From the NCBI GenBank assembly GCA_021324265.1, contig JAJPJK010000009.1, positions 802 through 64,801 of the forward strand: a stretch of DNA of 64,000 bases, written 5' to 3'. This document shows positions 32,261-51,481 of the stretch, piece by piece. How positions within the stretch are numbered: position 1 is the stretch's first letter; every line of letters begins with the position of its first letter. The notes under the pieces were generated by a model that searched no databases, was not told the DNA's origin, and saw only the letters and a list, made by a program, of their open reading frames with translations. Source of the stretch: Thermoproteota archaeon. Its GTDB lineage: Archaea > Thermoproteota > Thermoprotei > Gearchaeales > Gearchaeaceae. A program made the position numbers and the translations under genes.

Positions 32261-32361
32261 GCAGGGGTTCCCTAGCCTGGTCAAAGGGGCGGGGCTTAGG
32301 ATGCTATGCATAAGACACCCCGTGGCTTAGGCCTTCGTGGGTTCAAATCCCACCCCCTGCA
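32261..32361 (+). tRNA. tRNA-Leu (UAG) with 16-nt intron at canonical 37/38 position
   Basis: 101 nt. Acceptor GCAGGGG/CCCCTGC, D stem CCCT/AGGG, anticodon stem CGGGG/CCCCG interrupted after CTTAGG(A) by about 32301-32316, long variable arm TGGCTTAGGCCTTC, T arm GTGGG-TTCAAAT-CCCAC. Confidence 0.85.
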
Positions 32362-34217: not shown

Positions 34218-34442
34218 ATCCTTTCCATCCAAAAGTTATTGTATCTTGAACCATTTGTTTGTCTTTCAATAAGCATTGCAATGAATTATCTTCTATTTGA
34301 TTATTTAAATTTTTGAAAAACTAGCGAGCGAGCCTAAGGAGTTTGGCCTGATTTTCCTTAAAAAATTGTTACATTGGATCTCAAGAGACCATATGAGCAT
34401 GAATGAATCATTGAACTATGAAAAAAGTTTTATATTTTGAAA

Positions 34443-34499
34443 TGAGCACTGGGAATAAATAGTAAAGGATTAGCTTTAGATGAAGCTGGCCAGTGCTCA
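34443..34499. repeat. perfect 10-bp inverted repeat (TGAGCACTGG / CCAGTGCTCA) with 37-nt loop containing a nested 5-bp hairpin
   Basis: Read directly. Arms at 34443-34452 and 34490-34499. Inner AGCTT..AAGCT. Located in the 357-bp spacer between glmS and the accessory cluster. Confidence 0.6.
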
Positions 34500-34574
34500 A
34501 TAAATGAAGCTAAAGGCCACTATCTTTAAATATAGTTAGATTTATATCCTCCAGCCGAATAATATAAAAGGATC

Positions 34575-34901
34575 ATGCTCACGTACCTCGATATATATTC
34601 AACTTATAAAAATTTGATTCGTAAAAAGTTGTGGAATAGATTAGATAAATTTGATAAAGCTTTTGTGTTATCATGTTTGAAACTAAGTAAAATTAAAAAG
34701 ATTTTCAATTTTGAGATCATAAATACATTTAAAAATATAATAAGTAAAATAGCTAACTTCAGAAGCCGCATGACAGAAAAGGGTAGGAAAATAGCAGAGA
34801 ATGCAATGACAGGAAGCGTAGCGATGATACTTGGAAAGCTCAGAGATTGGTATCACGACTCGAATTACCAATTTTGGCTAGGTCTAGCGCTTACAAAATA
34901 A
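34575..34901 (+). CDS. hypothetical protein (108 aa)
   Basis: First ORF of the all-plus-strand cluster; basic, Lys-rich. No motif recognised. Confidence 0.35.
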   Translation: MLTYLDIYSTYKNLIRKKLWNRLDKFDKAFVLSCLKLSKIKKIFNFEIINTFKNIISKIANFRSRMTEKGRKIAENAMTGSVAMILGKLRDWYHDSNYQFWLGLALTK

Positions 34902-34923
34902 CACTTGTATAGAGGAATTTAAA

Positions 34924-35388
34924 TTGAAAAGAAAATTTATATTGTTATCAATATTTTTATTATTCATTATATTAAGTATAAATATTAAAATATTAAATGC
35001 TCAAAACGATAACTTTTTAGATCAATTCGAAAAAGCTTATACAGCGCTATACAATGCAGAGCTCAATGGAGGAAATATAACGGAGCTTTACTACAAATTG
35101 AACCAATCCTTAGCTATCTATGAAGAAGCTCAGCAATATAAGCAAAGAAATAGCACGCTTTACAACGAGCTCATCGATAATGCTACAAAGATATTGAATG
35201 AGGTAATGAGCAATGTTGCAAATGTTGAAGCACAAGGAATTGCTACTACCAATAATAGAATACTAGATTTTTCGCTAGAAATGGTTTCCTTAGTAATAGC
35301 GGGAATATTAGTCTACATCTACATGCCAAGGATAACGCTCTACATATGGTTAAAGATCCATTCGAAGTGGAAGGTTGTTAAGAAATGA
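34924..35388 (+). CDS. secreted, C-terminally anchored helical protein (154 aa)
   Basis: TTG start. Signal peptide MKRKFILLSIFLLFIILSINIKILNA-Q. 4 N-x-S/T sequons. C-terminal TM SLVIAGILVYIYM. Confidence 0.5.
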   Translation: MKRKFILLSIFLLFIILSINIKILNAQNDNFLDQFEKAYTALYNAELNGGNITELYYKLNQSLAIYEEAQQYKQRNSTLYNELIDNATKILNEVMSNVANVEAQGIATTNNRILDFSLEMVSLVIAGILVYIYMPRITLYIWLKIHSKWKVVKK

Positions 35389-35873
35389 TAGAAGAGAAGA
35401 TCACTTTAGCAACGCTAGCAATAATAGCGTTAATAGCCTTGGCGCTCATATTTCAGTTCGTCAATCCAAGCTTTTCCGAGCCCTTTTCTGAGCTCGCCAT
35501 ACTAGGCCCTGACATGAAGCTAACAGGCTACCCCCACGAAGTATCTGTAGGAGAGAACTTCACGCTTTATTTATTTGTTGGCAACCATGAAGGACATACG
35601 ATGTTCTATGAAGTTATGGTAAAGTTGGTAAACAACCAAACAACGCTTAGCACATCGAGCCCACTAAATGCTAGCGTGCTAGCTACTTATTACTTCATAA
35701 TCATGAACAACCAGAACGCAACCAAAAAGATTGTGCTTTCAATACCATATGAAGGAACGAATTTGAGGCTCGTCTTCGAACTCTGGGCCTTCTCAGCATC
35801 GAGCAACTCATTCTATTATAAAGGCATCTCGACGTATATCTGGCTTAACGTAACAGCTAGTAAGAGTGTCTGA
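35385..35873 (+). CDS. membrane-anchored protein matching the extracellular half of DUF1616
   Basis: N-terminal TM, then FSELAILGPDMKLTGYPHEVSVGENFTLYLFVGNHEGHTMFYEVMVKL. This resembles the TEFYILG...YP...GNHE... block of DUF1616 as I recall it. 5 sequons. Confidence 0.5.
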   Translation: MIEEKITLATLAIIALIALALIFQFVNPSFSEPFSELAILGPDMKLTGYPHEVSVGENFTLYLFVGNHEGHTMFYEVMVKLVNNQTTLSTSSPLNASVLATYYFIIMNNQNATKKIVLSIPYEGTNLRLVFELWAFSASSNSFYYKGISTYIWLNVTASKSV

Positions 35874-36444
35874 AAAGGAAATAGAAAACTATATCCTGAA
35901 AGCTTCAAGTAAGGTAGCCACGCTTGTTGATCTCGTAGAAGAAACTTCTAGGGCATTTTCTATACCTAAGTACAAAGTCCTGAGAGTTCTGAGCAGGCTA
36001 GTGGACGAAGAGAAGATATACATTCAGAATCCAAAAATTCCAAATTCTTTTATGCAATATCTCCTATCCTCATATTCGCAATGGTTTTTACTAGTTGTTT
36101 TAGCAGATTTCATGACATTGGCATCGATATACCTATTGCCTCAGACCTTTCCTGTAATACTAATAAGATATTTTTTCTCAGGGCTTTTCCTGCTCTACCT
36201 CCCAGGCTACACTCTCATAGAGGCTCTTTTCCCAAAGAAGGAAGATATGGGAAGCATAGAGAGATTCGCGCTTTCCGTGAGTTTAAGCCTCGCCATTGCA
36301 CCGCTAATAGGATATATTTTCAATTTCACAGTATGGGGCATAAGGCTAGAACCTATAGCTACAGCACTGACCATATGGATAATGTGCTTTGCTATACTAG
36401 CGCTGATGAGAAAATATTATTACTTCAGACTCGCTAATATTTAG
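35866..36444 (+). CDS. wHTH-like N-terminus plus membrane half of DUF1616
   Basis: GTG start. LPGYTLIEALFPKKEDMGSIERFALSVSLSLAIAPLIGYIFNFTVWGIRLEP matches the DUF1616 PGY...ALFP...IER...TPWGIRL membrane block. Confidence 0.55.
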   Translation: MSEKEIENYILKASSKVATLVDLVEETSRAFSIPKYKVLRVLSRLVDEEKIYIQNPKIPNSFMQYLLSSYSQWFLLVVLADFMTLASIYLLPQTFPVILIRYFFSGLFLLYLPGYTLIEALFPKKEDMGSIERFALSVSLSLAIAPLIGYIFNFTVWGIRLEPIATALTIWIMCFAILALMRKYYYFRLANI

Positions 36445-36447
36445 CGC

Positions 36448-37155
36448 ATGCGCAGTATAAACTCCATATTGGGCTTATCATTTTCAGTATTCGGTGCATT
36501 ATTCGCAATTTTCAATTACTTTATAACTTACAGTGCACCGCTTATTTCGACAGGCCTAGCCATCATGATCATAGGAATAGCTCTAAGCCTAATTCCTGAT
36601 TCTTCTATAACCCAAAGAACTCTCAAGAGCATGCTTCACAGCTCAATGTTAAATATTGAGGCCATACTGGAACACTTCGATATCAAGAATAGCGCAGTTT
36701 ATGTCCCCACAAAAGATAAAAATGTTGTAGCGTACATACCTATCTATACTAACCCTCATACTCCTAGCATTGAATCATATTATAATGCACCTAAGTCAAT
36801 ACTCACAAGGCTAGGTGATACACCTGCAATCATGATATTACCTCCGGCCTCCGAAATTACTCAGTCAGAGGAAATTTCTAGAGAGGCCAGCCTAGAGGAA
36901 AGTTTGAATTATATCATATGTGAATTATGCGAATTGAGCGACTCCGTAAAATTGGTAGAAAAAGGAGATGAGATCATTCTGGAATTTAAAAATATAAAAT
37001 TCATGCCAGAAGCTGCGAGATTTAAGCTCTGTTTAGGATCTTTGCATAGCAGCATCGCAGCATGCGTGATTGCCATTGAAAAAGAAAGAGCAGTTTCAAT
37101 AATTGAAGATAATGGAGATTTGAGAAAAAACATCGTTAAAATGAAACTATACTGA
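36448..37155 (+). CDS. membrane protein (2 N-terminal TM helices plus about 170-aa soluble domain), unknown function
   Basis: Hydrophobic N-terminus LGLSFSVFGALFAIF / LISTGLAIMIIGIALSLI. 3-nt gap from the upstream gene. Confidence 0.45.
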   Translation: MRSINSILGLSFSVFGALFAIFNYFITYSAPLISTGLAIMIIGIALSLIPDSSITQRTLKSMLHSSMLNIEAILEHFDIKNSAVYVPTKDKNVVAYIPIYTNPHTPSIESYYNAPKSILTRLGDTPAIMILPPASEITQSEEISREASLEESLNYIICELCELSDSVKLVEKGDEIILEFKNIKFMPEAARFKLCLGSLHSSIAACVIAIEKERAVSIIEDNGDLRKNIVKMKLY

Positions 37156-37394
37156 TGGAAAGAAGTTATCAGTTCATATTCGCCTTAATGGTCTTGATGT
37201 TTGCGAGCATTGTAGTTCTAGAGCTAGAAAACGTTACGGACCTGGGAGTGTATCTTACAGTTTTCGCTTTTGAGTACATAGTCCTAGATGAAATGTTTAA
37301 AGTCAGAAAAATAGCCTTTGATTTCCTTAAATTAGCACTATTTGTTATTTTTGTATACATCGTCGCTATTAGAATTATTAACATATTAGTTTGA
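37155..37394 (+). CDS. small membrane protein (79 aa)
   Basis: Hydrophobic segments FIFALMVLMFASIVVL, YLTVFAFEYIVL and LALFVIFVYIVAI. 1-nt overlap upstream and 4-nt overlap downstream. Confidence 0.4.
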   Translation: MERSYQFIFALMVLMFASIVVLELENVTDLGVYLTVFAFEYIVLDEMFKVRKIAFDFLKLALFVIFVYIVAIRIINILV

Positions 37395-39274
37395 AAATTA
37401 GAAAAGTAGTTATATCTTTTTTTGTGATTATATTAATTTTATTATCTTTATTCATGTTCAACAATCCTATCCAACAAGTATACATAAGCATTCAGACATC
37501 CCTAAATCCTTCTACGGCCAATGAGAGCATTCCTTCCTCTATCGCACTTCTTCAAATTTATAATGGTATTTTCTCTTCGATAAACGAAGAAAATTTTACA
37601 AAAGCTAAAGATTCAATAAGCAGTTTAAATTTTGCTTACTTTCCTTCCAAATTTAAATTTATAGTAAATAGATTTAATTCTCTATTGAATATGACAATTG
37701 ATGATCTATCATTAATAAAGAATTACATTGAAAAAGCTAATAAGGCTTTAAAAATTGGAAATCTCACAAAGGCAAAAGAAATAATTGATGAGGCTAACAA
37801 GACCTATGAGGACGCAAATGCAACAATAAACGAACTTTTTTTGGCATTAAACAGTTTTTCATCCTCTATCAATGTGCCTTTAGCAACGATGCAGAGTAAT
37901 CTGGAGAATTTAAAACAGAAACTCGATTCCTATCTTCAAGAGATTTTAGAGCTCAGCGAAGAAATAATGGCATATTCAATGCTCAAGCCAGTGAGCCTGA
38001 TCATTGAAACAACGGTAACAAGCGTATGGACAGGCGGAACAATTGATATCTACGGCAATCTTACGAGTAATGGAACTGCTCTGGCTGGCAAAAAAATAAG
38101 CATATTTATAGATACGAAGAATGTCACGAGCATAAATACTGATGCCGAAGGCAGGTTTGTGTTCACGTATAGCCTACCATACATTTACAGAGAAAAATTA
38201 GAGATCTTCGCCTCCTATATTCCTAGTGGACAGGATGCGAATGTCTATGCCCCTGCAATTTCGAACACGTTGTTCATTAACATCCAGTATTATAAACCGA
38301 GCATAGAGATAACATACCCCCAAGTTGTGCTACCATCAAAAATCTACACTTTTGAAGGCTACGTATTGCTAAATGAAACCTATTTGGATAATATCAAGGT
38401 ATTGCTTAAGTTTCAGAATCAAACGTGTTTAGCGCAAACCAATAAGGGCTATTTCAGCTGCGAACTTGAGATACCTTCAAATGTGCAAGAAGGAAATTAC
38501 ACCTTTCACGTCTCTACCTATCCTAATGGAACGATAGGCCCGTTTAGCAATGATTACATGATCGAAGTCAAGAAACTAGATTTGGACATAAACCTTAATT
38601 ATTCAGGAATAACCATTGCCGGCTTAAATGTTGTCATAGATGGTTCAGTTTCATTAAATAATACACCTGTGTCCAATGCGCAGATACTCTTACTAAATTA
38701 CCTATCAGCCAATTCCACATACACTGATTCTCAAGGTAGGTTCAAAATCAGTGTACCCATAAGTGCGCTCTACTTCGGTTGGGACTACGAGATACTAATA
38801 AAGATATCACCTGCATTGCCATACGCGAAGGATAAAACTGTAATTGCGAGGGTTTACGTCTTTAATGGATTCACCATGGCATCTCTGATAATACTAACAT
38901 CGGTTTCTTCATACATGATTTATTCATACAGCCGTAAGAAGAAGCCTGAAAGGAAGGAAGAAAAGGAGATTGTAAAGGAAGAGCCTGAGGAGACCGTTGT
39001 GGTCCATGAAAAAGCCTACAGCGGAATATTGAAGATATATTATTTAGCTACTTCTTTAGCGGAGAAAGTTTCTGGTATAAAACTCCTTAAGCACTATACA
39101 ATTAGAGAATACTGCAATATGATTGAAAATAAGATCAGAGCCTTTCCTTCTTTTCTTGAGATTTCCATGCTTACAGAGAAACATCTTTACTCTGGAGAGG
39201 CTGAAGATGAGAAAGACATAAAGAAGGCAGAAGAGGAATACAGAAGGCTAGAAGAAGAGAATGGTGGACTTTAG
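37391..39274 (+). CDS. large sequon-rich surface protein: N-terminal anchor, helical region, three beta-sandwich-like modules, TM helix, cytoplasmic DUF4129-like tail
   Basis: TTG start. 16 N-x-S/T sequons. Repeated DAEGRFVFTYSLP / DSQGRFKISVP (CarboxypepD_reg-like) modules. TM MASLIILTSVSSYMIY followed by a KKKPERKEEKE stop-transfer. Tail HYTIREYCNMIE...EKHLYSGE resembles DUF4129. Confidence 0.55.
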   Translation: MKIRKVVISFFVIILILLSLFMFNNPIQQVYISIQTSLNPSTANESIPSSIALLQIYNGIFSSINEENFTKAKDSISSLNFAYFPSKFKFIVNRFNSLLNMTIDDLSLIKNYIEKANKALKIGNLTKAKEIIDEANKTYEDANATINELFLALNSFSSSINVPLATMQSNLENLKQKLDSYLQEILELSEEIMAYSMLKPVSLIIETTVTSVWTGGTIDIYGNLTSNGTALAGKKISIFIDTKNVTSINTDAEGRFVFTYSLPYIYREKLEIFASYIPSGQDANVYAPAISNTLFINIQYYKPSIEITYPQVVLPSKIYTFEGYVLLNETYLDNIKVLLKFQNQTCLAQTNKGYFSCELEIPSNVQEGNYTFHVSTYPNGTIGPFSNDYMIEVKKLDLDINLNYSGITIAGLNVVIDGSVSLNNTPVSNAQILLLNYLSANSTYTDSQGRFKISVPISALYFGWDYEILIKISPALPYAKDKTVIARVYVFNGFTMASLIILTSVSSYMIYSYSRKKKPERKEEKEIVKEEPEETVVVHEKAYSGILKIYYLATSLAEKVSGIKLLKHYTIREYCNMIENKIRAFPSFLEISMLTEKHLYSGEAEDEKDIKKAEEEYRRLEEENGGL

Positions 39275-40220
39275 GATAGTTATCTTGAGCGGTGTCGCAT
39301 CATTATTGCTTTCTCTAACGATGGTTTATTATTATCCGTATATATCCGCAATTCCGCAGCCTGATTTTTATCCCCAAAATAACTCATGGAACGGACTGAT
39401 GGACTTCGTTAGAACCTACAATGCCTCGATAATCACAGACCTCAATGACCTACCGATCAAGGGTAGCGGCTTTGATCTATTCATAGTTGGACCGTATTAC
39501 AATTTCACTGTCGATGAAACGAATAGAATAAAAGATTTCTTAGCGAGCGGAGGAAAACTGATCATTGCTGACAATTTCGGTAGCGGAAACTCTCTTCTAA
39601 CATATCTTGGGCTTGATAGTAAATTTTCAAAGAAAACTGTCAATGATGCCGTATTCTATGTAAGAAACAGCATGATAATCGAATCATTGAATTCCTCCAT
39701 TCCCAATGTCAAGGTACTTGCCTTTGGGCCTGCAAGCTATGTAGAGGTAAATGACACAAGTGCAAAGGTCCTGGCATGGTCTAGCTCCTTCAGCTATGTT
39801 GAAGAAGGAAATTCTGAAAAGACCGGCCCTTTCCCCTTAATTGTAAGTATAGAATATTTGAATGGATCCATCATTCTTGTATCAAGTCCTACAATCTTCA
39901 CCAACTATTTCCTCACGCTCTATGACAACGCTTATGCAGTTAAATTCTTAGCAAATGGGAAGGTAATACTATTTACCTCAAAGCTCAAATATAGCATGCT
40001 TTACAACTTCTGGTATGCCGAAAATGAGTTCATAATCTCCATGAAGAGCGCTGGTGTTGACTTCATAGTCTTTTCTCTTTTATCCTTGGGGGTATTCATT
40101 ACACTAATTTATGAACCTAGAAGAGAGAAAATCGTTGATAAACTGACTGCTTTAATAAACGAGCACCCGGATTGGGATATAAATATCTTAAAGAGATTAA
40201 AAGAGGATATTGAGAAATGA
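39261..40220 (+). CDS. DUF4350-like membrane-anchored extracellular protein
   Basis: N- and C-terminal TM helices. GGKLIIADNFGSGNSLLTYLGL block. 6 sequons. Sits upstream of moxR as in DUF4350-MoxR-DUF58 clusters. Confidence 0.5.
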   Translation: MVDFRIVILSGVASLLLSLTMVYYYPYISAIPQPDFYPQNNSWNGLMDFVRTYNASIITDLNDLPIKGSGFDLFIVGPYYNFTVDETNRIKDFLASGGKLIIADNFGSGNSLLTYLGLDSKFSKKTVNDAVFYVRNSMIIESLNSSIPNVKVLAFGPASYVEVNDTSAKVLAWSSSFSYVEEGNSEKTGPFPLIVSIEYLNGSIILVSSPTIFTNYFLTLYDNAYAVKFLANGKVILFTSKLKYSMLYNFWYAENEFIISMKSAGVDFIVFSLLSLGVFITLIYEPRREKIVDKLTALINEHPDWDINILKRLKEDIEK

Positions 40221-41146
40221 ACAGGCAGATCGTTAAGAACTTGCTGGAAAGTATCAGCTCAGTAATTATCGGACAGGAAGAAACGATACAAAAACTACTT
40301 GCATGCACACTTGCTGAAGGCCATGCGTTACTTGAAGGGCCTCCGGGTGTGGGTAAGACAACACTGGCAAAAGTGCTCTCTATTTGCTTAGGGGGAGCTT
40401 TTAGGAGAATACAGATGACTCCAGACCTTCTTCCGAGCGATATAATAGGCTCAAGCTATTTTGACGTAAAGGAAGGGGTATTCAAAATAAGACAAGGGCC
40501 AATATTCGCGAATGTACTGCTAATAGATGAGCTCAATAGGGCATCACCCAGGACTCAATCTGCTTTACTCGAAGCTATGCAAGAAAGGCAGGCAACGATT
40601 GAAGGAAATACATTCTCATTACCAAGGCCCTTCATAATAATAGCCACACAAGGTCCAAGCGCAATAGCAGGGACTTTTCCTCTAACAGAAGTACAGCTAG
40701 ATAGGTTTGCAATGAAGTTGATAAGTGGAATACCTTCAAGAGAAATAGAGAAGAAAATAGTCGCAAATATAGATGAAATAGAGCAATTAAAGATAAAACC
40801 TGTACTTACTTTAAGTGATGCCATAAGGTTAATTGATGAAGCAAAAGGAATTAAGATTTCTGAAAGAATACTTGACTATATATTGAATATAATAGAGCAA
40901 ATCCGTAATGATAAAAGAATAAGACTCCCTCCAAGCCCTAGAGCTTCGATATGGCTTTATAAAATAGGCAGGGTCTTCGCTTACTTAGATGGAAGAAACT
41001 ACATGATACCTGATGATGTGAAACGCATAGCGCATGAGGTCCTGAGACATAGAATATATTTGAAGACAGAATGGGAACTTGAGGGGATTGAACCAGATAC
41101 GATAATAAGGGAGACACTAGAAAGCGTCGCAGTTCCACGTGAATGA
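40217..41146 (+). CDS. moxR: MoxR-family AAA+ ATPase
   Basis: Walker [10 protein letters not shown], Walker B LLIDELNRA, TQSALLEAMQERQ; 309 aa. Confidence 0.9.
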   Translation: MNRQIVKNLLESISSVIIGQEETIQKLLACTLAEGHALLEGPPGVGKTTLAKVLSICLGGAFRRIQMTPDLLPSDIIGSSYFDVKEGVFKIRQGPIFANVLLIDELNRASPRTQSALLEAMQERQATIEGNTFSLPRPFIIIATQGPSAIAGTFPLTEVQLDRFAMKLISGIPSREIEKKIVANIDEIEQLKIKPVLTLSDAIRLIDEAKGIKISERILDYILNIIEQIRNDKRIRLPPSPRASIWLYKIGRVFAYLDGRNYMIPDDVKRIAHEVLRHRIYLKTEWELEGIEPDTIIRETLESVAVPRE

Positions 41147-42441
41147 TTAACTTTACAAAGCTAGGAAAATTACTTTTTTCAATAGATCTATCCTCGATAT
41201 TAATATCTTTATTTTTTTCAAATTACTATCTTTTAGCGATCTTTATAATTTCTTTTTTTATATTAATTTATGACTATCTCGATGCAAGAAAAATCTTGAC
41301 AAAGCCTCCCATAGAAATCATGCCAAATCGACTTTCGAAGAGCGTTATAAGAGGAGAAGTGCTACATATGGACCTCAAGTTCAAATCTAAAAGAAATTTT
41401 GAACCAGTTAATACCAAAGAATTCAAAATAGAAAAGAAAAACGATACGCTAAGCATTCAACTAAATGCCGACAGGATTGGCACGAAAGTTTTGAATGAAA
41501 TAAAAATCAAAATGCCCAGTAAGCTAAAACTATTCAACATAGAAACTAGTGCAAAACTTGAGCTGGAAATACGCATAAAACCAAAAATCGTGGCCATAGC
41601 TATGGAGATCTTGGGTATTCTTGAGGGCTTGAGAAAAGGCAGAGGAGGCATGATGATGGGGGAGACGGTTTCTAGGTTCATCGGTCATGGCTTTGAATAT
41701 CTGGGTTCAAGGGAATATCACCCCGGAGATGATTTGAGAAGAATAGATTGGAAGGCAACTGCTAGGAGGTTTCAGTTAATGATTAAGGAATTCCATCGAG
41801 AAATGGGAGGAAGGATAGGTTTGATATATTCAAATTACAACATAGGTCCGAATACGAATGACGATATGGTTTCAGATTTTTTGCTCATTTTACTGAATGC
41901 AGCAAAAGAAGATATACCTGTAAAGGTAACGATGATAGAAAACGGACAAATTATAGATATTCCTGTTTCCGATCCTACGGAGATACTTGCAATCTGTCTA
42001 GATAGATTACTTAAATACAGTGGAGTATCCTATGAGGAAATTTATCAGATAATTGAGGAAGACCCTTACTTCAGAGATTTTAAGCTCATGAATCTTGAAA
42101 GATTCCAAGAATTCGTTAAGCTCTCAAAAGAAAAAGTAATGAGAGATGCCAAAATAGGAAAAAATTTCATGTCATTTTTTGAACCCGAAAATAGCAATGA
42201 AACTGAAGCAATTATTATATTTTCAAGTCTTATCAAGGATTCAAGACTGATCTCTAGCTCTGCTCTAATGATGAGATTTCCGAACGTAAGGCTCTACATA
42301 GCATATCATTCCAAACCATGGCTTGATGCAAAGAATCTTGAGGAGGCCTATTTGATGTACAAAAAGATGAACAGCGTGCTAAATTATTTAACCAAAATAG
42401 GTTGCGAAACACTAGCTGTACCAATACTCAAACCCAAATAG
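41143..42441 (+). CDS. DUF58-domain protein (MoxR partner, vWA-related)
   Basis: Two N-terminal TM helices. Signature GSREYHPGDDLRRIDWKATAR. ATGA overlap with moxR. Confidence 0.8.
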   Translation: MINFTKLGKLLFSIDLSSILISLFFSNYYLLAIFIISFFILIYDYLDARKILTKPPIEIMPNRLSKSVIRGEVLHMDLKFKSKRNFEPVNTKEFKIEKKNDTLSIQLNADRIGTKVLNEIKIKMPSKLKLFNIETSAKLELEIRIKPKIVAIAMEILGILEGLRKGRGGMMMGETVSRFIGHGFEYLGSREYHPGDDLRRIDWKATARRFQLMIKEFHREMGGRIGLIYSNYNIGPNTNDDMVSDFLLILLNAAKEDIPVKVTMIENGQIIDIPVSDPTEILAICLDRLLKYSGVSYEEIYQIIEEDPYFRDFKLMNLERFQEFVKLSKEKVMRDAKIGKNFMSFFEPENSNETEAIIIFSSLIKDSRLISSSALMMRFPNVRLYIAYHSKPWLDAKNLEEAYLMYKKMNSVLNYLTKIGCETLAVPILKPK

Positions 42442-42442: not shown

Positions 42443-43333
42443 TTGGAGAAGTTCAACATAGTAGCGATCCTTCCAGCTTATAACGAGGAAGGAAAGATAG
42501 CGAAGGTTTTGGTAAAGACTCTCAAGCATGTATCGAAGGTAATCGTTGTAGATGATGGTTCAAATGACTATACAGCGGAGATAGCTGAAAGGATGGGAGC
42601 AATTGTTTACCGCCATGGAGAGCGCTTGGGAAAAGGAGAAGCTCTTAAAACAGGCTTCGAAATCGCTAAAAAACTGGGCGCAGATATCATCGTTACGCTC
42701 GATGCAGACGGCCAGCATGATCCGGATGAGATACCTCTTGTAATTGAGCCTATAATGAAAGGTGAGGCGGATATCGTGATAGGATCTAGGACTCTATCCA
42801 ATTCCAAAATACCTACAATAAGGAAGATTGGGAATGATGTATTGAACAAGGTAACGAACATAGCTTCAGGGCTGAAGCTAACCGATACGCAGAGTGGCTT
42901 CAGGGCTTTTACTAGGAAGGCTATCGAGATGATCGAGGTCAAGGATCATGGCATGGGAGTAGAATCGCAGATCCTTATTGATGCAGCAGATAAAAAGCTA
43001 AGGATAAAGGAGGTGCCTATAAGCGTTAAGTATGGCAAGGATACCTCTACATATAACTTCCTAAAGCACGGCTCGTATGTCTTCATCGTCATATTGAGGA
43101 CGATTATAGAGAGAAGCCCATTGCTCTATCTAGGGCTTCCTGGCATAGCTGTTGGAGCCGTTGGCCTCGCGCTCACGATATGGTTGCTCGCTCTTTACAA
43201 TACCGAGCGATACTTCAGCATACCTCTCGCTATTCTAGCTCTTGGAGGCATACTGCTAGGCGTAATACTAGTAGTTACTGCACTTCTTTTATATGCGATA
43301 AACAACCTGCATGCAAGGCTAAGAAGAGTATGA
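42443..43333 (+). CDS. family-2 glycosyltransferase, dolichyl-phosphate hexose synthase-like
   Basis: TTG start 1 nt after the DUF58 stop. ILPAYNEE, VVDDGSNDYT, LDADGQHD (DxD). Two C-terminal TM helices as in GtrB/DPM1-type enzymes. Confidence 0.85.
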   Translation: MEKFNIVAILPAYNEEGKIAKVLVKTLKHVSKVIVVDDGSNDYTAEIAERMGAIVYRHGERLGKGEALKTGFEIAKKLGADIIVTLDADGQHDPDEIPLVIEPIMKGEADIVIGSRTLSNSKIPTIRKIGNDVLNKVTNIASGLKLTDTQSGFRAFTRKAIEMIEVKDHGMGVESQILIDAADKKLRIKEVPISVKYGKDTSTYNFLKHGSYVFIVILRTIIERSPLLYLGLPGIAVGAVGLALTIWLLALYNTERYFSIPLAILALGGILLGVILVVTALLLYAINNLHARLRRV

Positions 43334-44505
43334 AGAAAATAACGATTATATCGCAGTACTGGGAGCCAGATATGAATGGAGATGTAGTCAGGCTGAAGAA
43401 TTACATTGGATTGCTGCTAAAGCTTGGATTCGAGATAACGCTCATAACTGCGATACCCAACTATCTAACATATAAAAGGAAAGAAGCCAAGGTTGGGATC
43501 GAAAAAAGAGAAAGGCTCAAGATAATAAGGTTATGGATGCCCAAGCTTGTGCACAAAGGATTGGCTAGTAGGCTAATTCTATATTTGAGCTTCATGATAT
43601 TCGCTTCGCTACCTACATTGATCTATGCTAGGAAAAGCTATATTTGGGCATTCTCTCAGAGGGTCTTCTCAACACTCGCCGCATTGCCTGCGAAGCTGCT
43701 ATTCAGAGTTAAGCTTTATTCGGATATAACAGATATTTGGCCTGAAGCGTTGATCAATACGGATTATGCCAGTGAGGATTCATTATTCTATAAAATGGGT
43801 AGATTCATAGCAAAGATAGCCTATAGATCCAGCGATAAGATCCTTGTGCTAAGCGAAGATATGAAGAAGCAAATCGCCAATCGATATGGTTTAGATCCAA
43901 AGAGGGTATTTGTATTGGAGAACTTCATGCCGAGCAGAGAAATAGATTTACCAAACATGAACGGAGAGCTCAGAGTGCTTTATTATGGGAATCTTGGAAA
44001 GAACTACGATTTCGATGCGATAATTGAGCTGGCAAAGGAACTTAAGCGAGAAAAGATCAAGTTCATCATCATAGGATCTGGGGAGATGGAATATGAAATC
44101 ATTGAGAACATAAAAAGGAACGGGCTCACAAATGTTGAATTCATCAACAGGATGCTTGAAGAAGCAAAGCTAAAAGCCTTTGTTAAGGATGCACAAGTTT
44201 TAATTTTGCCTATGCGTCATCAAGTCATAGAGGACGTCTCATTCCCAACGAAATTAATAGACTATCTCCATTCAGGCAGGGTAATACTTTACATAGGGAA
44301 TGGATATTGCTTAAGGCTAATTAATGGCCATAAGGCAGGAATTGGACTAGATAAGTTCGAGAAGGAAAAGCTTGTTGATTTCCTAAGAACGTTAAGTAAT
44401 AACGCTGAGATGATAAAGGAATATGCAACGAATGCAAAAAGACTTGCGGAAGAGATGTTTTCTGAAATGAACGCCACTGCGAAAATTAAAATCCTCTTTC
44501 AGTGA
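43330..44505 (+). CDS. family-4 (GT-B) glycosyltransferase
   Basis: Start at ATG 43330 (MKKITIISQYWEP), ATGA overlap with the GT2 stop. C-terminal GT-B pattern LILPMR...FPTKLIDYLHSGRVIL. Confidence 0.8.
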   Translation: MKKITIISQYWEPDMNGDVVRLKNYIGLLLKLGFEITLITAIPNYLTYKRKEAKVGIEKRERLKIIRLWMPKLVHKGLASRLILYLSFMIFASLPTLIYARKSYIWAFSQRVFSTLAALPAKLLFRVKLYSDITDIWPEALINTDYASEDSLFYKMGRFIAKIAYRSSDKILVLSEDMKKQIANRYGLDPKRVFVLENFMPSREIDLPNMNGELRVLYYGNLGKNYDFDAIIELAKELKREKIKFIIIGSGEMEYEIIENIKRNGLTNVEFINRMLEEAKLKAFVKDAQVLILPMRHQVIEDVSFPTKLIDYLHSGRVILYIGNGYCLRLINGHKAGIGLDKFEKEKLVDFLRTLSNNAEMIKEYATNAKRLAEEMFSEMNATAKIKILFQ

Positions 44506-46208
44506 TGGCGAATAACATAACAGTCCTAGGAATCAACGACGGCCACGATTGCGGTGCAGCGCTCATAAGAAACGGAAAGATATTGGCGGCCGTTCAAGAG
44601 GAGAGGCTATCGAACATAAAGCATCACAGCGGAACACCGAAGTTAGCGATAAGGGAGGTATACAAGATAGCTGGCATAGATCCAAAGGAAACGAATGCAA
44701 TAGCGATCGTTAGCCTGAATAGAGTTTACTCTCCACTTGAGGAATACCCTCTTAAAGTTAGGATTTTCGAAAAGGCTTCAAGATTCTTTCACGGCAAGAG
44801 CTTCGCTAAACTATATGTTTCTATACTTCACAAGTTCAGACCAATAAAGGAGTTGATGGAAATATTTAGCGAGCTTGGCATAGAGGATAAAGAAGTTAGA
44901 TTTGTTGAGCACCACTTAGCGCATGCTTCATGCGCTTATAGAACAAGCCCTTGGGGCTATGATAAGCCAGTCTTAGTTATGACCTCAGATGGCGCAGGAG
45001 ATGGAGTTTCAGCCACTGTCAATATTGCAGAGAAAGGCGAGATAACTAGGATAGCATGGTCAACGTTCTACAATTCGCTAGGCAACGCTTTCTATAGCGA
45101 GATAACTCGCTATCTTGGCATGAAGCCCTGGGATCACGAATACAAGGTCATGGGTCTTGCGCCATATGGCAAGCCTGAACTTTGCTTGGAAAAGATGAAG
45201 AAGATCATAAGGATAAATCCGAAGAACAAGCTAGAATTCGAGAATACATTCGGTTCTTATCTCAAATCGATGCAGCCAAAGCTTAGGAAGCTCCTAGCAT
45301 ATGAGAGATTTGATAACATCGCAGCAGCATGCCAGCTATATTTCGAGATGCTCGTATGTGAATGGGTAGAGAATGCCATAAAGAAAACGGGAATAAGTCA
45401 TGTTGCCTTCGCAGGAGGTAACTTCTTGAATGTCAAAGCAAACAAGAGGATTTTGGAGCTAGAAAGCGTTGAAGATGCCTTTTTCTATCCAGCATGCGGA
45501 GATGATGGAACACCTGTTGGCGCAGCTTTGCAGGCCTATTATGAAATATGCAAAGAAGAAGGCATAAAGCCTGAGTTCCATCCACTTGAAGATCTTTACT
45601 ATGGACCTAGTTATGATGACGAGGAAATAAGAGAGGTGCTTAAGAAAGAGGGAATGCTTGAAAAAGCTGAGAAATATAGCGATATAAATGGCGTTGTAGG
45701 CGAAATGCTCACCAAAGGGAAAATAGTGGCGAGATTTGATGGGAGGGTTGAATGGGGACCAAGGGCACTGGGCAATAGAAGTATACTTGCAGATGCAAGG
45801 GATTTCAGAGTGATTAGGAAATTGAACAGCGCGATAAAACAAAGAGATTTCTGGATGCCCTTCGCTCCTACGATACTCGAGGAAAGGATTGATGAATACC
45901 TTATCGATGCGAGGCCAGCTAGATATATGATACTCGCTTTCGATACCACTGAAAAGCGAGATGAGATCATCGCTGCAATACATCCCCAAGATTTCACTGC
46001 AAGGCCACAAACGTTAAATGATTGGAACGAAGGATATAGGAAGATATTAAAGGAATTCGAAAATATAACAGGTGTTGGAGGGATTCTCAATACCAGCTTC
46101 AATCTCCACGGCTATCCCATCGTAGGTACACCTGAGCTAGCAATATGGACACTTAAGAACTCTGGACTTGAGTATTTAGCAATTGGAAGCTACTTGGTAA
46201 GGAAGTAA
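44502..46208 (+). CDS. NodU/CmcH-family carbamoyltransferase
   Basis: LGINDGHDCGAALI, QEERLSNIKH, EHHLAHA, GPRALGNRSILAD, NTSFNLHGYPIV. Start is GTG 44502 or ATG 44505. Confidence 0.9.
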   Translation: MMANNITVLGINDGHDCGAALIRNGKILAAVQEERLSNIKHHSGTPKLAIREVYKIAGIDPKETNAIAIVSLNRVYSPLEEYPLKVRIFEKASRFFHGKSFAKLYVSILHKFRPIKELMEIFSELGIEDKEVRFVEHHLAHASCAYRTSPWGYDKPVLVMTSDGAGDGVSATVNIAEKGEITRIAWSTFYNSLGNAFYSEITRYLGMKPWDHEYKVMGLAPYGKPELCLEKMKKIIRINPKNKLEFENTFGSYLKSMQPKLRKLLAYERFDNIAAACQLYFEMLVCEWVENAIKKTGISHVAFAGGNFLNVKANKRILELESVEDAFFYPACGDDGTPVGAALQAYYEICKEEGIKPEFHPLEDLYYGPSYDDEEIREVLKKEGMLEKAEKYSDINGVVGEMLTKGKIVARFDGRVEWGPRALGNRSILADARDFRVIRKLNSAIKQRDFWMPFAPTILEERIDEYLIDARPARYMILAFDTTEKRDEIIAAIHPQDFTARPQTLNDWNEGYRKILKEFENITGVGGILNTSFNLHGYPIVGTPELAIWTLKNSGLEYLAIGSYLVRK

Positions 46209-48070
46209 TGCAGATAGAAGTATTTGAAAGGAGAGTAAGAGAGCTATTGGATAAAATACTTGTTAGGAAGTTTGCTTTCTATGCACTTGGCCTTGTAACT
46301 GCGCTGAACATAGCAATGGCGCTATTTTTGCTGAGTAGATTCGTAATCACGTTTTACTTCTATTTCTTGAACCTCCTTGGATTGAACATTGGCCTAGTAG
46401 CATATCTAGGCTTGGATAGAATAAAGGTGCTTAAGGAGATAAAAATGGGTAGTAAAGTCAATGCTGCATTACTTTTACTTTTCATTTCTTTTATGTTCAT
46501 TTCTTATTTATCAATACTTTATAGCGTAAACTACAGATCTATTTACTACTATATTTTCACGACGCTAGCATTCTTCACTATACTTCCAAGAATTTTCTTC
46601 GATGAAATGAAGAAGAGAAATGCAATGATCATACTCATGCAACTCATGGCACTGAGCTTTCTTGAAAGGATAAGCCTTTTCATCATGCACGACTTTCCAC
46701 CTTGGTGGGATCCATATTTTCATTACGCAACAAGCTTAACTGTATATAATAATGCCCACATTCCTAATCTAGCTGGCTATACGTATTTTCCGCTCTATTA
46801 TATTTTCAACAGCGAGATATGGCTCATGATCTTTGGTGATACTAGCATGAATTATATTGTTATAAATGCGCTCATACTAGTTATATCTTTGATTTTACCT
46901 TATTTGATCGCTGAAAGGATCACAAAAAGCGAACGAGCTGGGGTATTCGCAAGCACTTTGATTATGATAGTATATAATTTCTTCGGCATGACTAACTTCC
47001 AGACCCCCCATCCTTTCTCGTTTACCTTAGCAATGCTCTCGATTTATTTGCTTTACAGGATAATCTTTGAAGGAATTAATTACAGGCTCATAGGTATTTT
47101 CTTAATCTCATCGATAGGGTCCTTCATATTCCACCCAAGTGGAGGCCTTTTCTTGAGTTATCTTAGCATAGGCTTAATTATATTCAGGATGCTTTTCAAT
47201 GTTAGGAGATACTTGGTGTTTTTAATATTCCCTTTATTCGTATTTTTATACTTAATTAACCTAGCTCAGAATCAATTAGGCTATTATATATCACTTTCAT
47301 TTGGTGCGCAAGGCCTTAGCGTAGAAAACCCCGTATATCCTGGCTTCAGTTCAACTTTCGCACAGATAACATTTTACACACTTTCGCATTTCTGGTATTT
47401 CGCAGTTGCATTCTTTACTGCGTTGGGACTATTTACCCTCATATTGAGCAATAAGAAAAACTATTTTTTACCCGTGCTAGCTGTTATCGCAGTACTTCCT
47501 ACAACTACATTGTTCTTCACAGGGAGAGCTGTGGCAGAAACAATTGGAACAGGATTCATAGTACTTGCAGAGGTATTGTTGGGAGGAATTGCGCTTAGAA
47601 GCACTTTCAAAAAAACAATAGCTATATTCTTCATAATTCTATTAACCTTTTCCTTCTTTTCTTCTACGTTACTAAGCGATGATGCTCCGTATTTCGGCAA
47701 AGCAATTAATGGAAATTATACTTATTACATCCAACAAACTTATTACACGAATGAACAAAGCATAAGTGCAGCAAGCTTGCTTGTGAATAACATGCAAGGA
47801 AACATATTAGTCAACTCCACAGATGATAGAGCTTTTGCTGCATGTTGCTCAATATCAGTGAAAGGATATGTTCACTTAGATCCTTCGATTTATGTGGTCA
47901 GTAACAATACATACTATTTCATTAGCTACTACATAACCTCTCGATGGCCAGCTCTTCCTCCACAGGCATATGAAAATTTCGCAAGAAATATGACAGCAAA
48001 TCCTAATGTTAATTTGATTTATTCAAATGGAGATACTATAATCTTCTTCTCGAGCATTCATAAGAAGTGA
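46208..48070 (+). CDS. large polytopic membrane protein with C-terminal extracellular domain (candidate GT-C-type transferase or glycan polymerase)
   Basis: 620 aa. More than 10 hydrophobic segments, then a C-terminal domain of about 110 aa with sequons. ATG overlaps the upstream stop by 1 nt. Confidence 0.45.
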   Translation: MQIEVFERRVRELLDKILVRKFAFYALGLVTALNIAMALFLLSRFVITFYFYFLNLLGLNIGLVAYLGLDRIKVLKEIKMGSKVNAALLLLFISFMFISYLSILYSVNYRSIYYYIFTTLAFFTILPRIFFDEMKKRNAMIILMQLMALSFLERISLFIMHDFPPWWDPYFHYATSLTVYNNAHIPNLAGYTYFPLYYIFNSEIWLMIFGDTSMNYIVINALILVISLILPYLIAERITKSERAGVFASTLIMIVYNFFGMTNFQTPHPFSFTLAMLSIYLLYRIIFEGINYRLIGIFLISSIGSFIFHPSGGLFLSYLSIGLIIFRMLFNVRRYLVFLIFPLFVFLYLINLAQNQLGYYISLSFGAQGLSVENPVYPGFSSTFAQITFYTLSHFWYFAVAFFTALGLFTLILSNKKNYFLPVLAVIAVLPTTTLFFTGRAVAETIGTGFIVLAEVLLGGIALRSTFKKTIAIFFIILLTFSFFSSTLLSDDAPYFGKAINGNYTYYIQQTYYTNEQSISAASLLVNNMQGNILVNSTDDRAFAACCSISVKGYVHLDPSIYVVSNNTYYFISYYITSRWPALPPQAYENFARNMTANPNVNLIYSNGDTIIFFSSIHKK

Positions 48071-48120
48071 TAATTAATATTGCTTGAGAGGATCATCCAA
48101 AATTATAAATTGCAAAAAAT

Positions 48121-48825
48121 ATGATTGTTCCTTTAGAGTATTTAAATAAAAAGTATTTTAAAGCTATGATTAAGAATCCATACCAAATAAGATTTTTTAT
48201 AGATTTGGTTCAAAGAGAACAAAAATTATACAGAATTCTAGAAGCAAGTACCAAGGAAATAAAATACAACTTGAGCAAGGCAGAGGAAATAAGGAGAGAA
48301 ATTTATGAAAAAATGAAAAACTATTCATATCATGGTGCAATGGTCTCTCCTCTGGAAGGCCCAATCATTTATTGCATAGTTAGAATTTTAAAGCCAGAGA
48401 TCGTTATCGAAACAGGCGTAGCTAATGGTGCATCATCCACATTCATCTTAAATGCTTTAGAAGAAAACAATAAAGGTAGGCTATACAGCATAGATCTTCT
48501 TTCAAAAGAGTTGCAAGTGAAAGAAAAAGAAATAGGATGGTTGATACCGAAAGAATTGAGGCATAGATGGAATTTACATCTTGGAGACAGCAAAGAATTG
48601 CTACCAAAGTTTTTGCAACAATTAGGATACGTTGATATATTTTTACACGATAGCTTGCATACTCTTGAACATGTATTATTCGAGCTTAGAATTGCCTCAG
48701 CTTATATTAAAAGCGGTATCTTAATAGCTGATGATGTACATCCAAGCTGGATAAATAAAATATGCAATGCTCTAAATATCGAAAAACATGAATTGTTCAA
48801 TGATTTATTAGTATTGAAGAAATGA
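48121..48825 (+). CDS. class I SAM-dependent methyltransferase (Methyltransf_24/CmcI-like)
   Basis: VIETGVANGASS motif I region, LYSIDL, DIFLHDSLHT. Confidence 0.65.
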   Translation: MIVPLEYLNKKYFKAMIKNPYQIRFFIDLVQREQKLYRILEASTKEIKYNLSKAEEIRREIYEKMKNYSYHGAMVSPLEGPIIYCIVRILKPEIVIETGVANGASSTFILNALEENNKGRLYSIDLLSKELQVKEKEIGWLIPKELRHRWNLHLGDSKELLPKFLQQLGYVDIFLHDSLHTLEHVLFELRIASAYIKSGILIADDVHPSWINKICNALNIEKHELFNDLLVLKK

Positions 48826-49169
48826 AGTATCTATCCAAATATCATCACGAGCTTAATGAAAAGGCATATACGAGACTCAACATAGAAGATAGTGATTTCA
48901 AAAAAAGACAAATAATATATCCTAAATATTATTTTAAGAGAACTAATAATAATATGGAAGGCTTGGCAAATTTTTTATTATATATGTATCAAAAAATCAG
49001 ATAAAAAATTAAAAATAGGCATATTTTAAATCTAGGTGCAGGAACAGGTTATCGAGATACAAACTTACTTTTAAAATTGCAAAATAAAGTCAAAGCATTA
49101 GATCTCTCCTACGAAAAAAGCGTTCAAATAAAATATTTTTATACTATAGATATTTACTTTAATTATTAA
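48822..49169 (+). pseudogene. decayed class I methyltransferase (in-frame TAA at 49002-49004 and 3' truncation)
   Basis: The 60-aa ORF is followed in the same frame, after the TAA, by KIKNRHILNLGAGTGYRD...VKALDLS (SAM motif I and post-I). The reading frame then ends at 49167-49169, far short of a full MTase. Confidence 0.55.
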
Positions 49170-49185
49170 TTTAATATTCAAAAAA

Positions 49186-50361: not shown

Positions 50362-51481
50362 GACAATTGGCGAATTCGGACCTTCAATTGGGCCTTCGAA
50401 GCAAGCATACTTGCTTACTAAGGGATTGAGCAAGCAGGGAATATTTTCCATAATCTATACTTATGAAGTTTATGTTAACGAAAAAATTGAAAATGCGAAA
50501 ATAAAGAAGTTTGAGCCTTTTATTAAATTTGGCCATTACAAGATTTCCTTTAAAATGATTCAAGAAGTAATGAGAGAAAATGTAGATTTGGTTCATGTTC
50601 ATGGATATAGGAATTTCCAAACTGATTTGGGAGCATTAGTTTCATTGGAGAAAAAAATACCCTTAGTCATTACAGCGCATGGAACTGTAAAGGGTTATGA
50701 ATATTTGAATCTTGGCTTAAGATCTAGATTGCCAAATATAATTTACGATGCTTTGACCTTTAAGTTAACTTTGAGATTGGCAAAGAAGATAATTGCAACA
50801 TCTAAAAGTGAGGCAAATGAGCTTTTAAGCTTTGGAATACCTGAAAGTAAGATTGCGATCATTCATAACGGTATAGAATTCCCTAACATAGAAGTTAAGA
50901 AGGATTTCGATGATAAAGATACTCTTAACATATTAACAGTTTCTAGGATAACTTATAAAAACAACTTAGAAATGGGAATTAAAGCCTTTGCTGAAGCATA
51001 CAAAAGGAATAAAAAGCTTCGTTATATAATCGTAGGTGATGCTAAGCCTAGTAGATATGATGCGATGGAAAGAGGATATAAAGAAAAAATATTAAAGCTT
51101 TGTAAACAGCTTGGAATAAAAGATAAAGTAATCTTCACTGGCTGGCTAAGCGGTGAAGCATTGTGGGAAGCATATTTAAAAGGAGATATCTTTATTTGGA
51201 CTTCACGCTATGATAATTTTGCCCATGCTTTAGTAGAGGCAGCTTATTTTAAATTACCAATTATTAGTACTCCTGTTGGCATTGCAGGAGATTTGCTTGA
51301 TAAAGAATTCTTAGTTGAACATGAAGATTACAAAGAGCTTAGCGAGAAAATCCTAGAAATTTGCGAAAATCCTAAACTAATGAAAGAGATTGGAGAAGAG
51401 AATCATAAAAGATCGCTGAGATATAGTTATGAAAAAATGGTGAGGGAATATTACAAGCTATATTCAGAATTGGCAAGCTAG
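50348..51481 (+). CDS. family-4 glycosyltransferase
   Basis: VSRITYKNNLEMGIKAF, IVGDAKPS, FAHALVEAAYFKLPIIST (E-x7-E region). Confidence 0.85.
   Translation: MRILRTIGEFGPSIGPSKQAYLLTKGLSKQGIFSIIYTYEVYVNEKIENAKIKKFEPFIKFGHYKISFKMIQEVMRENVDLVHVHGYRNFQTDLGALVSLEKKIPLVITAHGTVKGYEYLNLGLRSRLPNIIYDALTFKLTLRLAKKIIATSKSEANELLSFGIPESKIAIIHNGIEFPNIEVKKDFDDKDTLNILTVSRITYKNNLEMGIKAFAEAYKRNKKLRYIIVGDAKPSRYDAMERGYKEKILKLCKQLGIKDKVIFTGWLSGEALWEAYLKGDIFIWTSRYDNFAHALVEAAYFKLPIISTPVGIAGDLLDKEFLVEHEDYKELSEKILEICENPKLMKEIGEENHKRSLRYSYEKMVREYYKLYSELAS

Follow-up and report, generated by a model that had tools for sequence, protein, structure and literature searches.

Ten consecutive open reading frames (ORFs) on the + strand occupy 34575-42441 of a 64,000-nucleotide stretch of DNA (the window) from a Thermoproteota archaeon. 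They are one operon, widely conserved in archaea and with translational coupling of its genes, and the locus is a divergent member of a system already predicted computationally. That system, arCOG01314/arCOG02884, was described from comparative genomics by Makarova, Galperin and Koonin in 2015 (Biochimie) as a 'putative novel secretion system' (PMC5898192, section 3.2, Table 2), so the system is not previously unrecognised; the original prediction, made from this DNA alone, had taken the block for a candidate uncharacterised cell-envelope system. The reading favoured here, considered rather probable, is that the ten ORFs form one operon for the arCOG01314/arCOG02884 envelope system, in which MoxR and DUF58 would remodel the tails of surface glycoproteins and so assemble or switch an envelope complex. 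The genes are referred to, in gene order, as a108, b154, DUF1616-C, DUF1616-N, X235, Y79, Z627, DUF4350, MoxR and DUF58.

34218-34574, + strand: intergenic region of 357 nt between glmS and a108, A/T-rich, with TATA-like boxes
34575-34901, + strand: a108, small basic helical soluble protein of 108 aa, no transmembrane helix, no sequon
34924-35388, + strand: b154 (154 aa), signal peptide, helical ectodomain with four sequons, C-terminal transmembrane helix, short basic tail with conserved W residues
35385-35873, + strand: DUF1616-C (162 aa), one transmembrane helix and an extracellular immunoglobulin (Ig)-like domain with five sequons
35866-36444, + strand: DUF1616-N (192 aa), cytoplasmic winged-helix-like domain of ~70 aa followed by a membrane domain
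36448-37155, + strand: X235 (235 aa), N-terminal two-helix membrane hairpin and a conserved globular domain of ~180 aa, predicted to be cytoplasmic
37155-37394, + strand: Y79 (79 aa), small membrane protein with two transmembrane helices
37391-39274, + strand: Z627 (627 aa), signal anchor, three-helix region, Ig-like (CarboxypepD_reg-type) beta domains, transmembrane helix, cytoplasmic DUF4129-type tail
39261-40220, + strand: DUF4350 protein (319 aa), signal anchor, extracellular GIFT/flavodoxin-like domain, transmembrane helix, cytoplasmic HPDWD...L..LK tail
40217-41146, + strand: MoxR-type AAA+ ATPase (309 aa), cytoplasmic, Walker A GPPGVGKTT, Walker B LLIDELNRA
41143-42441, + strand: DUF58 protein (432 aa), N-terminal two-helix hairpin anchor, DUF58 signature, divergent vWA-like region

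Operon structure and conservation of gene order

The run of ten + strand ORFs was borne out and is tightly packed. From b154 (34924) on, adjoining genes either overlap, by 1-14 nt, or lie no more than 3 nt apart, MoxR and DUF58 following directly 3' of DUF4350 with 4-nt overlaps; the sole larger gap inside the block, 22 nt between a108 and b154, holds a GAGG motif. The packing extends past DUF58 through four glycan genes to 48070, which makes 14 consecutive genes, and the ten genes and the four downstream ones are probably co-transcribed. The 357-nt gap in front of a108 is the only one of more than 22 nt ahead of 48070; TTTATAT was read at 34541-34547, about 28-34 nt 5' of the a108 ATG, and the region 34218-34574 is on its sequence the probable promoter of the block. 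Within the block no tandem repeats were found, and no RNA families were found with Rfam.

Related loci (43, denoted L003 and so on) were collected via MoxR homologues and by scanning 185,579 species genomes with a DUF4350 profile. Their ORFs were classified with family hidden Markov models built from the window proteins and 40 non-redundant loci were counted. The genome of the window lies outside the 185,579 species representatives, among which the best DUF4350 match has 35% identity. A 3.5-kb contig of the metagenome-assembled genome (MAG) GCA_035294585.1 is 100% identical to window positions 37247-40725; MoxR identity then falls to 67% for the next best match and to at most 55% for the others, the named sources being Nezhaarchaeales, Thermofilum, Desulfurococcaceae and Thaumarchaeota MAGs.

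A Z627-family gene lies directly upstream of DUF4350 in 33/35 loci with sequence available there, MoxR lies downstream of DUF4350 in 29/33 and DUF58 is present in 27/29, so that the order DUF4129-tailed protein, DUF4350, MoxR, DUF58 does recur, as had been proposed. X235 is present in 17/30 loci, Y79 in 14/30 and DUF1616 in 12 of the 19 loci with full flanks. The entire nine-gene order from b154 to DUF58, as listed above, was found in three Nitrososphaeria/Thaumarchaeota MAGs (L012, L016 and L022), in Methanosuratincola (L026) and in a Thermoproteota locus (L009); in a Bathyarchaeia MAG (L023) the two halves of the operon are swapped. The six-gene core keeps its order, X235-Y79-Z627-DUF4350-MoxR-DUF58, in L003, L005, L006, L013 (Hadarchaeota), L015 and L017 (Sulfolobales MAG). 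In Thermoplasmata, Z627-DUF4350-MoxR is accompanied by DUF58 and an unsplit DUF1616 gene on the opposite strand, and in Asgard MAGs a much longer Z627 precedes DUF4350-MoxR-DUF58. Because the same gene order is kept across archaeal phyla, the block is a conserved system and not a chance neighbourhood. The DUF1616 pair, the two membrane proteins and the helical protein had been taken for a local expansion of the module; with the same nine-gene order in several archaeal phyla they are instead standard in TACK-type archaea.

Several loci depart from these arrangements. The Desulfurococcaceae MAGs L007 and L008 carry, in order, MoxR, a 366-aa DUF4129 protein, a 381-aa and a 77-aa protein, a 509-aa protein with a weak DUF4350 match and DUF58; the parts of the module stay together despite the changed order. 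Contigs labelled as Candidatus Aerophobetes (L010, L011 and L019) and Clostridia (L015) carry an archaeal-type X235-Y79-Z627-DUF4350-MoxR-DUF58-DUF1616 set with 28-35% identity to the window, which reflects either horizontal transfer or binning contamination. On three metagenomic contigs DUF4350 or MoxR is broken into two ORFs (L004 7641-8669, L015 6405-7354 and L014 3775-4595); these are frameshifts, either real or assembly errors.

The published component list (PMC5898192) names arCOG01314 (DUF4350 with an extracellular flavodoxin-like domain), a MoxR/GvpN ATPase, an Ig-plus-vWA protein, Ig-like cell-surface proteins, DUF1616 (arCOG02884, pfam07760) and small proteins with two or three transmembrane helices, all in one predicted operon. 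The list is matched here: a membrane-anchored DUF4350 protein, adjacent MoxR and DUF58 and DUF1616 are all present, Z627 fits the Ig-like surface protein, and X235 and Y79, with two helices each, fit the small membrane proteins. The published Ig-plus-vWA protein was equated with the DUF58 protein because it adjoins MoxR. The window and its TACK relatives differ from the description in the reversed split of DUF1616, the winged-helix-like head of its N-part, the addition of b154 and a108 and the loss of the metal-ion-dependent adhesion site (MIDAS); moreover, DUF58 is placed by its sequence in the cytoplasm here, whereas it is likely secreted in the published model. The text of PMC5898192 and the accessible part of its supplement text do not say that the Z627 tail is of DUF4129 type. 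As far as was found, the literature searched does not contain the DUF4129-tailed Z627 family, the reversed and conserved DUF1616 split with its gained winged-helix-like head, the fusion of b154 to DUF1616-C, the MIDAS loss or the cytoplasmic placement of DUF58 and X235. A 2019 review counts arCOG02884 (HVO_2173) among archaeal 'dark matter' (PMC6393860).

Protein families and predicted topology

Z627 gave solely CarboxypepD_reg-type beta-sandwich models in Pfam, close to threshold; DUF4129 (PF13559) was matched neither by the full sequence (E<=0.1) nor by the isolated tail (E<=10). DUF4129 was matched by 34 of the 61 family members (best 1e-10), as was CarboxypepD_reg (likewise 34/61), and the L003 orthologue scores 27.4 bits against a cut-off of 24.8 over profile positions 2-69/69. 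In the family alignment the tail motif T-x-RE...E...Y (T570, R572, E573, E596 and Y600) is invariant or nearly so. Because 34/61 members match and the tail motif is conserved, the DUF4129 assignment given in the original prediction appears right at family level, while a direct Pfam match of the window protein is lacking. An exhaustive search of public data returned 675 cluster representatives of the Z627 family at E<=1e-3 and 169 at E<=1e-30, nearly all of 600-650 aa and matching end to end. The view that Z627 has no relatives, after a word-indexed search with the single sequence and with a five-sequence profile had returned only Z627 itself, was rejected, since the 675 relatives show the apparent lack to be an artefact of the index. 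The TTG start at 37391, which overlaps the Y79 stop by 4 nt and gives the 627-aa product, is supported because relatives align over the full length (P0122, for example, aligns 1-625 to 1-625). The public call of this gene (L044, contig DATGKQ010000120.1 of MAG GCA_035294585.1) is 527 aa long and is without the signal anchor.

The DUF4350-like assignment is upheld by a Pfam match to PF14258 at 4e-16, accompanied by a weak match to ABC_transp_aux. Its hydrophobic helices span residues 1-25 and 257-286, with all six sequons between them. In searches of the PDB the family profile found the GIFT domain of IFT52 at 5e-4 to 1e-3, and an HHpred likeness of the family to GldG has been reported (PMC5898192). 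The sequence similarity of the ectodomain to GIFT proteins (IFT52, and GldG of the gliding-motility ABC transporters) is marginal, and this operon has no ABC transporter. In the cytoplasmic tail H302, W305 and D306 are invariant in four sequences (alignment A3); across 24 sequences only W305 is near-invariant (>=90%; alignment A7).

The MoxR and DUF58 motifs named in the original prediction are present in the translations, the DUF58 motif GSREYHPGDDLRRIDWKATAR in that of the 41143 ORF. MoxR matched AAA_3 at 7e-54 (181.6 bits, profile positions 1-131/131) and AAA_lid_2 at 3e-18 (3-73/74), and the closest solved structure is 2R44, a structural-genomics MoxR, at 3.8e-63. DUF58 matched PF01882 at 2e-9 over profile positions 2-33 of 216 only. 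Its signature, G-x-x-E-Y-x-x-S-R-E-Y-x-P-G-D-x-x-R-x-I-D-W-K-A-T-A-R at residues 183-210, is conserved in 18 orthologues with W203 invariant, and the N-terminal hairpin has positive charges on both flanks. The vWA MIDAS motif DxSxS was not found in the window protein, which has YSNYN at residues ~226-232 (alignment A6), and relatives have Y/F-D-x-R-x-x-G/D at the MIDAS position; no vWA structure in the PDB was matched by the DUF58 family profile. Among the loci of alignment A6 the MIDAS is degenerate where X235 and Y79 are carried and kept in Asgard (L040, partly L037) and Thermoplasmata (L020) loci, which are without X235 and Y79, in a sample that is small and not phylogenetically independent. 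The sequences suggest that a client may be engaged either through X235/Y79 or through the MIDAS site.

Both parts of the split DUF1616 gene, read as such in the original prediction, match the Pfam family: DUF1616-C covers PF07760 profile positions 157-287 (E=1.3e-18; orthologues at 2e-45 to 6e-34) and DUF1616-N positions 7-117 (E=5.4e-26). A simple fission in place does not account for the pair, as the order is reversed, with the C-part gene first and the N-part gene second, and the N-part has gained a winged-helix-like domain. The split recurs in L003, where the parts lie on opposite strands, and in L009, L012, L016, L022, L023 and L026, which represent several TACK lineages. The family architecture is a single polypeptide in which an N-terminal membrane domain precedes a transmembrane helix and an Ig-like domain; the gene is unsplit in L015, L019, L020, L024, L025, L028, L029, L030 and L032, and Thermoplasmata, Methanoperedens and some other loci keep one gene of 290-340 aa. 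A hydropathy scan of DUF1616-N gave hydrophobic regions at residues 72-113, 133-156 and 159-183; two or four transmembrane helices are listed for the family (PMC5898192, Table 2). Residues 1-72 (35866-36080) have consistent winged-helix similarity below threshold (TrmB, MarR_2, MCM_C; best 4e-4), and this head of ~70 aa is found also in the DUF1616-N orthologues of L009, L022, L003 and L006 and is missing from the unsplit proteins.

Homologues of b154 lie directly upstream of the DUF1616-C gene in L012, L016, L022, L026 and L023, and in a Thermoproteota MAG the two are fused in a single ORF of 337 aa (L009 5562-6575), which links the two proteins functionally. A 173-aa protein of L003 is a possible distant counterpart of b154: the two align at the conserved A-E-x-x-G and tail W positions (alignment A9), and the BLASTP match is not significant (E=20). 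A paralogous relation between b154 and the helical region at the N-terminus of Z627 was considered and rejected at an hhalign probability of 6%.

No Pfam or NCBIfam family was matched by a108, b154, X235 or Y79 in the database copies searched. Homologues of a108 occupy the equivalent upstream position in L009 (1.8e-28) and L026 (2.5e-6), and a108 is a probable accessory component. X235 orthologues were found at 1e-42 to 1e-24 (family alignment A4) and Y79 orthologues of 80-83 aa at the same position in 13 loci; precomputed annotations of related contigs give weak matches to DUF7982 for X235 and DUF8044 for Y79. Profile searches of the PDB with the X235, Z627, DUF58 and DUF1616 alignments returned no real relative, the matches being designed helical/armadillo proteins and one marginal Ig-repeat adhesin.

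Topology was assigned from hydrophobic helices, flanking charges and sequon density. Hydropathy bore out the N-terminal signal or anchor helices ascribed to the 34924, 35385, 36448, 37391 and 39261 products (b154, DUF1616-C, X235 with two helices, Z627 and DUF4350), and the sequon counts given for b154, DUF1616-C, Z627 and DUF4350 (4, 5, 16 and 6) were exact on recount. All 16 sequons of Z627 lie between the hydrophobic helices at residues 1-30 and 484-502, with none in the 125-aa tail. Against composition-preserving shuffles the excess in the window proteins has P = 0.04 (b154), 0.04 (DUF1616-C), 0.001 (Z627) and 0.10 (DUF4350). Pooled over orthologues from other lineages, sequons are enriched 2.4-fold in the Z627 family (z=21), 3.9-fold in DUF1616-C (z=14.6) and 1.3-fold in DUF4350 (z=3.6), level in MoxR (1.0-fold) and depleted in X235 (0.6-fold); the 1.45-fold value of DUF58 corresponds to an absolute density of only 0.35 per 100 aa, near that of MoxR, the ectodomain proteins having 1.7-2.5 per 100 aa across orthologues. 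The membrane and surface glycoprotein character of the block, claimed at the outset, holds, with the enrichment recurring across orthologues. In Haloferax volcanii the DUF1616 protein HVO_2173 was found experimentally to be N-glycosylated at four sites (PMC8241124); compared with such archaeal N-glycoproteins, sequon enrichment in the putative glycoproteins here is limited to the predicted ectodomains. The sequon-rich ectodomains of Z627 (Ig-like/helical), DUF4350 (GIFT-like), DUF1616-C (Ig-like) and b154 (helical) are predicted to lie outside the cell. Sequon-poor parts are predicted on the cytoplasmic side: MoxR, the globular domain of X235, the tails of Z627 (DUF4129) and DUF4350 (HPxWD), the winged-helix-like head of DUF1616-N and most of DUF58, for which a cytoplasmic position looks more likely than secretion. 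The W-rich basic tail of b154 is placed on this side as well.

Glycan genes and wider neighbourhood

The four genes downstream of DUF58 were classified with Pfam.

42443-43333, + strand: GT2 glycosyltransferase with a C-terminal membrane domain
43330-44505, + strand: GT4 glycosyltransferase
44502-46208, + strand: carbamoyltransferase
46208-48070, + strand: PMT_2-like polytopic protein of 620 aa

The junctions from DUF58 through GT2, GT4 and the carbamoyltransferase to the PMT_2-like gene are +1, -4, -4 and -1 nt. The coupling of the last two genes to GT2, GT4 and the module hints at a carbamoylated glycan and an extracellular lipid-linked glycosyltransferase step. The physical fusion of the module to a glycan-synthesis operon, a further point of the original prediction, is thus continuous here to 48070, but about half of the other loci have no glycan genes nearby: GT2 homologues lie within 10 kb in 8/19 full-flank loci, a figure that stands without a matched background rate. 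The glycan link is recurrent, not universal, and is not a defining feature of the system.

Further downstream, 48000-62000 is an island of low GC content (27-34%, compared with 37-42% elsewhere), densely filled with genes for GT4/GT2 glycosyltransferases, an asparagine synthase and a pair of CmcI-like methyltransferases. The island is probably a cluster for surface glycans that is variable or was acquired horizontally. Upstream, between suf/nifU genes and glmS, a tRNA of ~100 nt at 32261-32361 was found by Rfam (42 bits) and was unreported by ARAGORN; it is probably an intron-containing archaeal tRNA.

Proposed mechanism and rival explanations

The mechanism was inferred by analogy with RavA-ViaA, CbbQ-CbbO and NorQ-NorD, which are described in the accessible parts of PMC3893208 and PMC9976466 as carrying out chaperone-like maturation of dedicated complexes. 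DUF58, anchored in the membrane by its hairpin, would act as an adaptor that docks the MoxR hexamer on the cytoplasmic face, and MoxR would use ATP hydrolysis to remodel the bitopic subunits at their conserved cytoplasmic tails and domains. In this way a glycosylated surface complex of several subunits, associated with the envelope or S-layer, would be assembled, inserted or switched in conformation. The adjoining glycosyltransferases would probably supply or modify glycans on module or neighbouring surface proteins. The original proposal, a machine that matures, anchors or remodels some glycosylated structure of the surface, is close to this model and plausible. Like the three characterised systems, the block has a gene for an AAA+ MoxR ATPase, which would form a hexamer, beside one for a putative vWA-type adaptor; their targets are soluble or respiratory enzymes and their adaptors have a MIDAS, whereas the adaptor here lacks one and surface glycoproteins would be the clients.

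Two bacterial arrangements are also related in gene content. The Bat/cmd operons (MoxR-DUF58-BatA/BatB vWA-TPR) of Bacteroides fragilis, Rhizobium leguminosarum, Leptospira and Borrelia, mutants of which have envelope, morphology or aerotolerance defects (PMC5700661 and references 24 and 25 therein), likewise have MoxR (AAA_3) followed by DUF58 and membrane proteins. The archaeal block is without BatA/BatB-type vWA, TPR or SH3 proteins (no VWA or TPR Pfam matches were obtained in the ten proteins), and these partners are replaced by DUF4350, the DUF4129-tailed Ig-like protein, DUF1616, X235 and Y79. The statement that no phenotype had been assigned accordingly stands for this module itself, for which none was found published, but not for its Bat/cmd relatives. 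The mycobacterial genes Rv3689-Rv3695 (DUF4350 Rv3691, MoxR Rv3692 and DUF58 Rv3693), a co-regulated block in M. chelonae according to the accessible part of PMC8191103, share the order DUF4350-MoxR-DUF58 with membrane-protein neighbours; those neighbours are SpoIIM-like and RDD-family proteins, and DUF1616, X235 and Y79 are not among them.

Several points weigh against the remodelling model. The single-sequence AlphaFold2 models were unusable (predicted local distance difference test score 44 for Z627, where only the three-helix segment at about residues 86-196 was confident, and 37 for X235) and hence lend it no structural support. DUF58 of the window clade is without the MIDAS, the target-binding motif of characterised vWA adaptors, so that the adaptor analogy may fail in detail. 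The DUF58/vWA protein was called 'likely secreted' by Makarova et al. (PMC5898192) and, if this is right, direct contact with MoxR is impossible. Finally, no experimental study of the function of the module was found in the literature searched for the arCOGs, type genes, DUF families and Haloferax genes. A form of the model in which the module is an inside-out force transducer, the MoxR ring being docked by the MIDAS-less DUF58 and X235, gripping the DUF4129 and HPxWD tails and mechanically switching or extruding an Ig-like/GIFT glycoprotein lattice, with DUF4129 as the handle of MoxR clients in archaea and actinobacteria alike, is regarded as unlikely.

The published prediction and model (PMC5898192, section 3.2, Fig. 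2) hold instead that the block is a protein secretion system, the membrane subunits forming a conduit and MoxR powering the passage of large proteins to the surface, for example adhesins or S-layer proteins. The relation of the DUF4350 domain to the GldG and IFT52 GIFT domains speaks for this, as do the ~14-17 transmembrane helices per subunit set (counted from hydrophobic segments), which could oligomerise, and the large secreted proteins encoded close to some of the loci (one of 1166 aa in L003 and a protease of 1235 aa in L006). [quoted passage not shown] Secretion is given an outside, though real, chance. That the complex does not act on proteins but scaffolds, exports or attaches the glycan made by the neighbouring glycosyltransferases is judged quite improbable. 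It would fit the contiguity of the module with GT2, GT4, carbamoyltransferase and PMT_2-like genes, the GT2 homologues within 10 kb of other loci, the sugar-nucleotide genes 3' of DUF58 in L005 and the inclusion in the GIFT family of GldG, an ABC-transporter auxiliary protein; yet the loci free of nearby glycan genes and the missing background rate tell against it, the conserved core has no flippase, ABC transporter or polymerase, and archaeal surface-protein genes of any kind commonly neighbour glycan clusters.

The short conserved cytoplasmic tails and the winged-helix DNA-binding similarity of the DUF1616-N head in the split clade would suit a role in transmembrane sensing, in which the Ig-like and GIFT ectodomains sense the state of the envelope and signal to MoxR and the winged-helix-like domain in order to control gene expression. 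This similarity, consistent as it is, falls under every Pfam threshold, the head is absent from the unsplit DUF1616 of Thermoplasmata and Methanoperedens, which keep the rest of the system, and no kinase, receiver or other signalling domain is present; such a role is very unlikely. An anti-virus or conflict system of the MoxR-vWA class (for example, the MoxR-vWA-beta-propeller ternary systems) is suggested by the score of MoxR above the Pfam bpMoxR threshold (39.5 bits), but AAA_3 scores far higher (181.6 bits), beta-propeller, effector and NTPase partners are lacking, the actual partners are membrane glycoproteins and the context is a syntenic, housekeeping one across phyla. PADLOC gave generic AAA+ matches only, and the defence reading, to which hardly any credence is attached, was rejected. 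Equally far-fetched is a chance juxtaposition of unrelated membrane-protein genes beside a MoxR-DUF58 pair: the order is the same in at least six archaeal lineages at 20-35% protein identity, the genes overlap and two components are fused in L009, and the conserved synteny refutes this explanation.

The window adds comparative detail to the arCOG01314/arCOG02884 system; its source is an uncultured archaeon represented only by a MAG, and the question of function becomes no easier to test here. Once established, that function would account for a part of the cell envelope that is widespread among archaea, and it could give a role to the DUF4129, DUF4350 and DUF58 proteins that accompany MoxR in actinobacteria, mycobacteria included.

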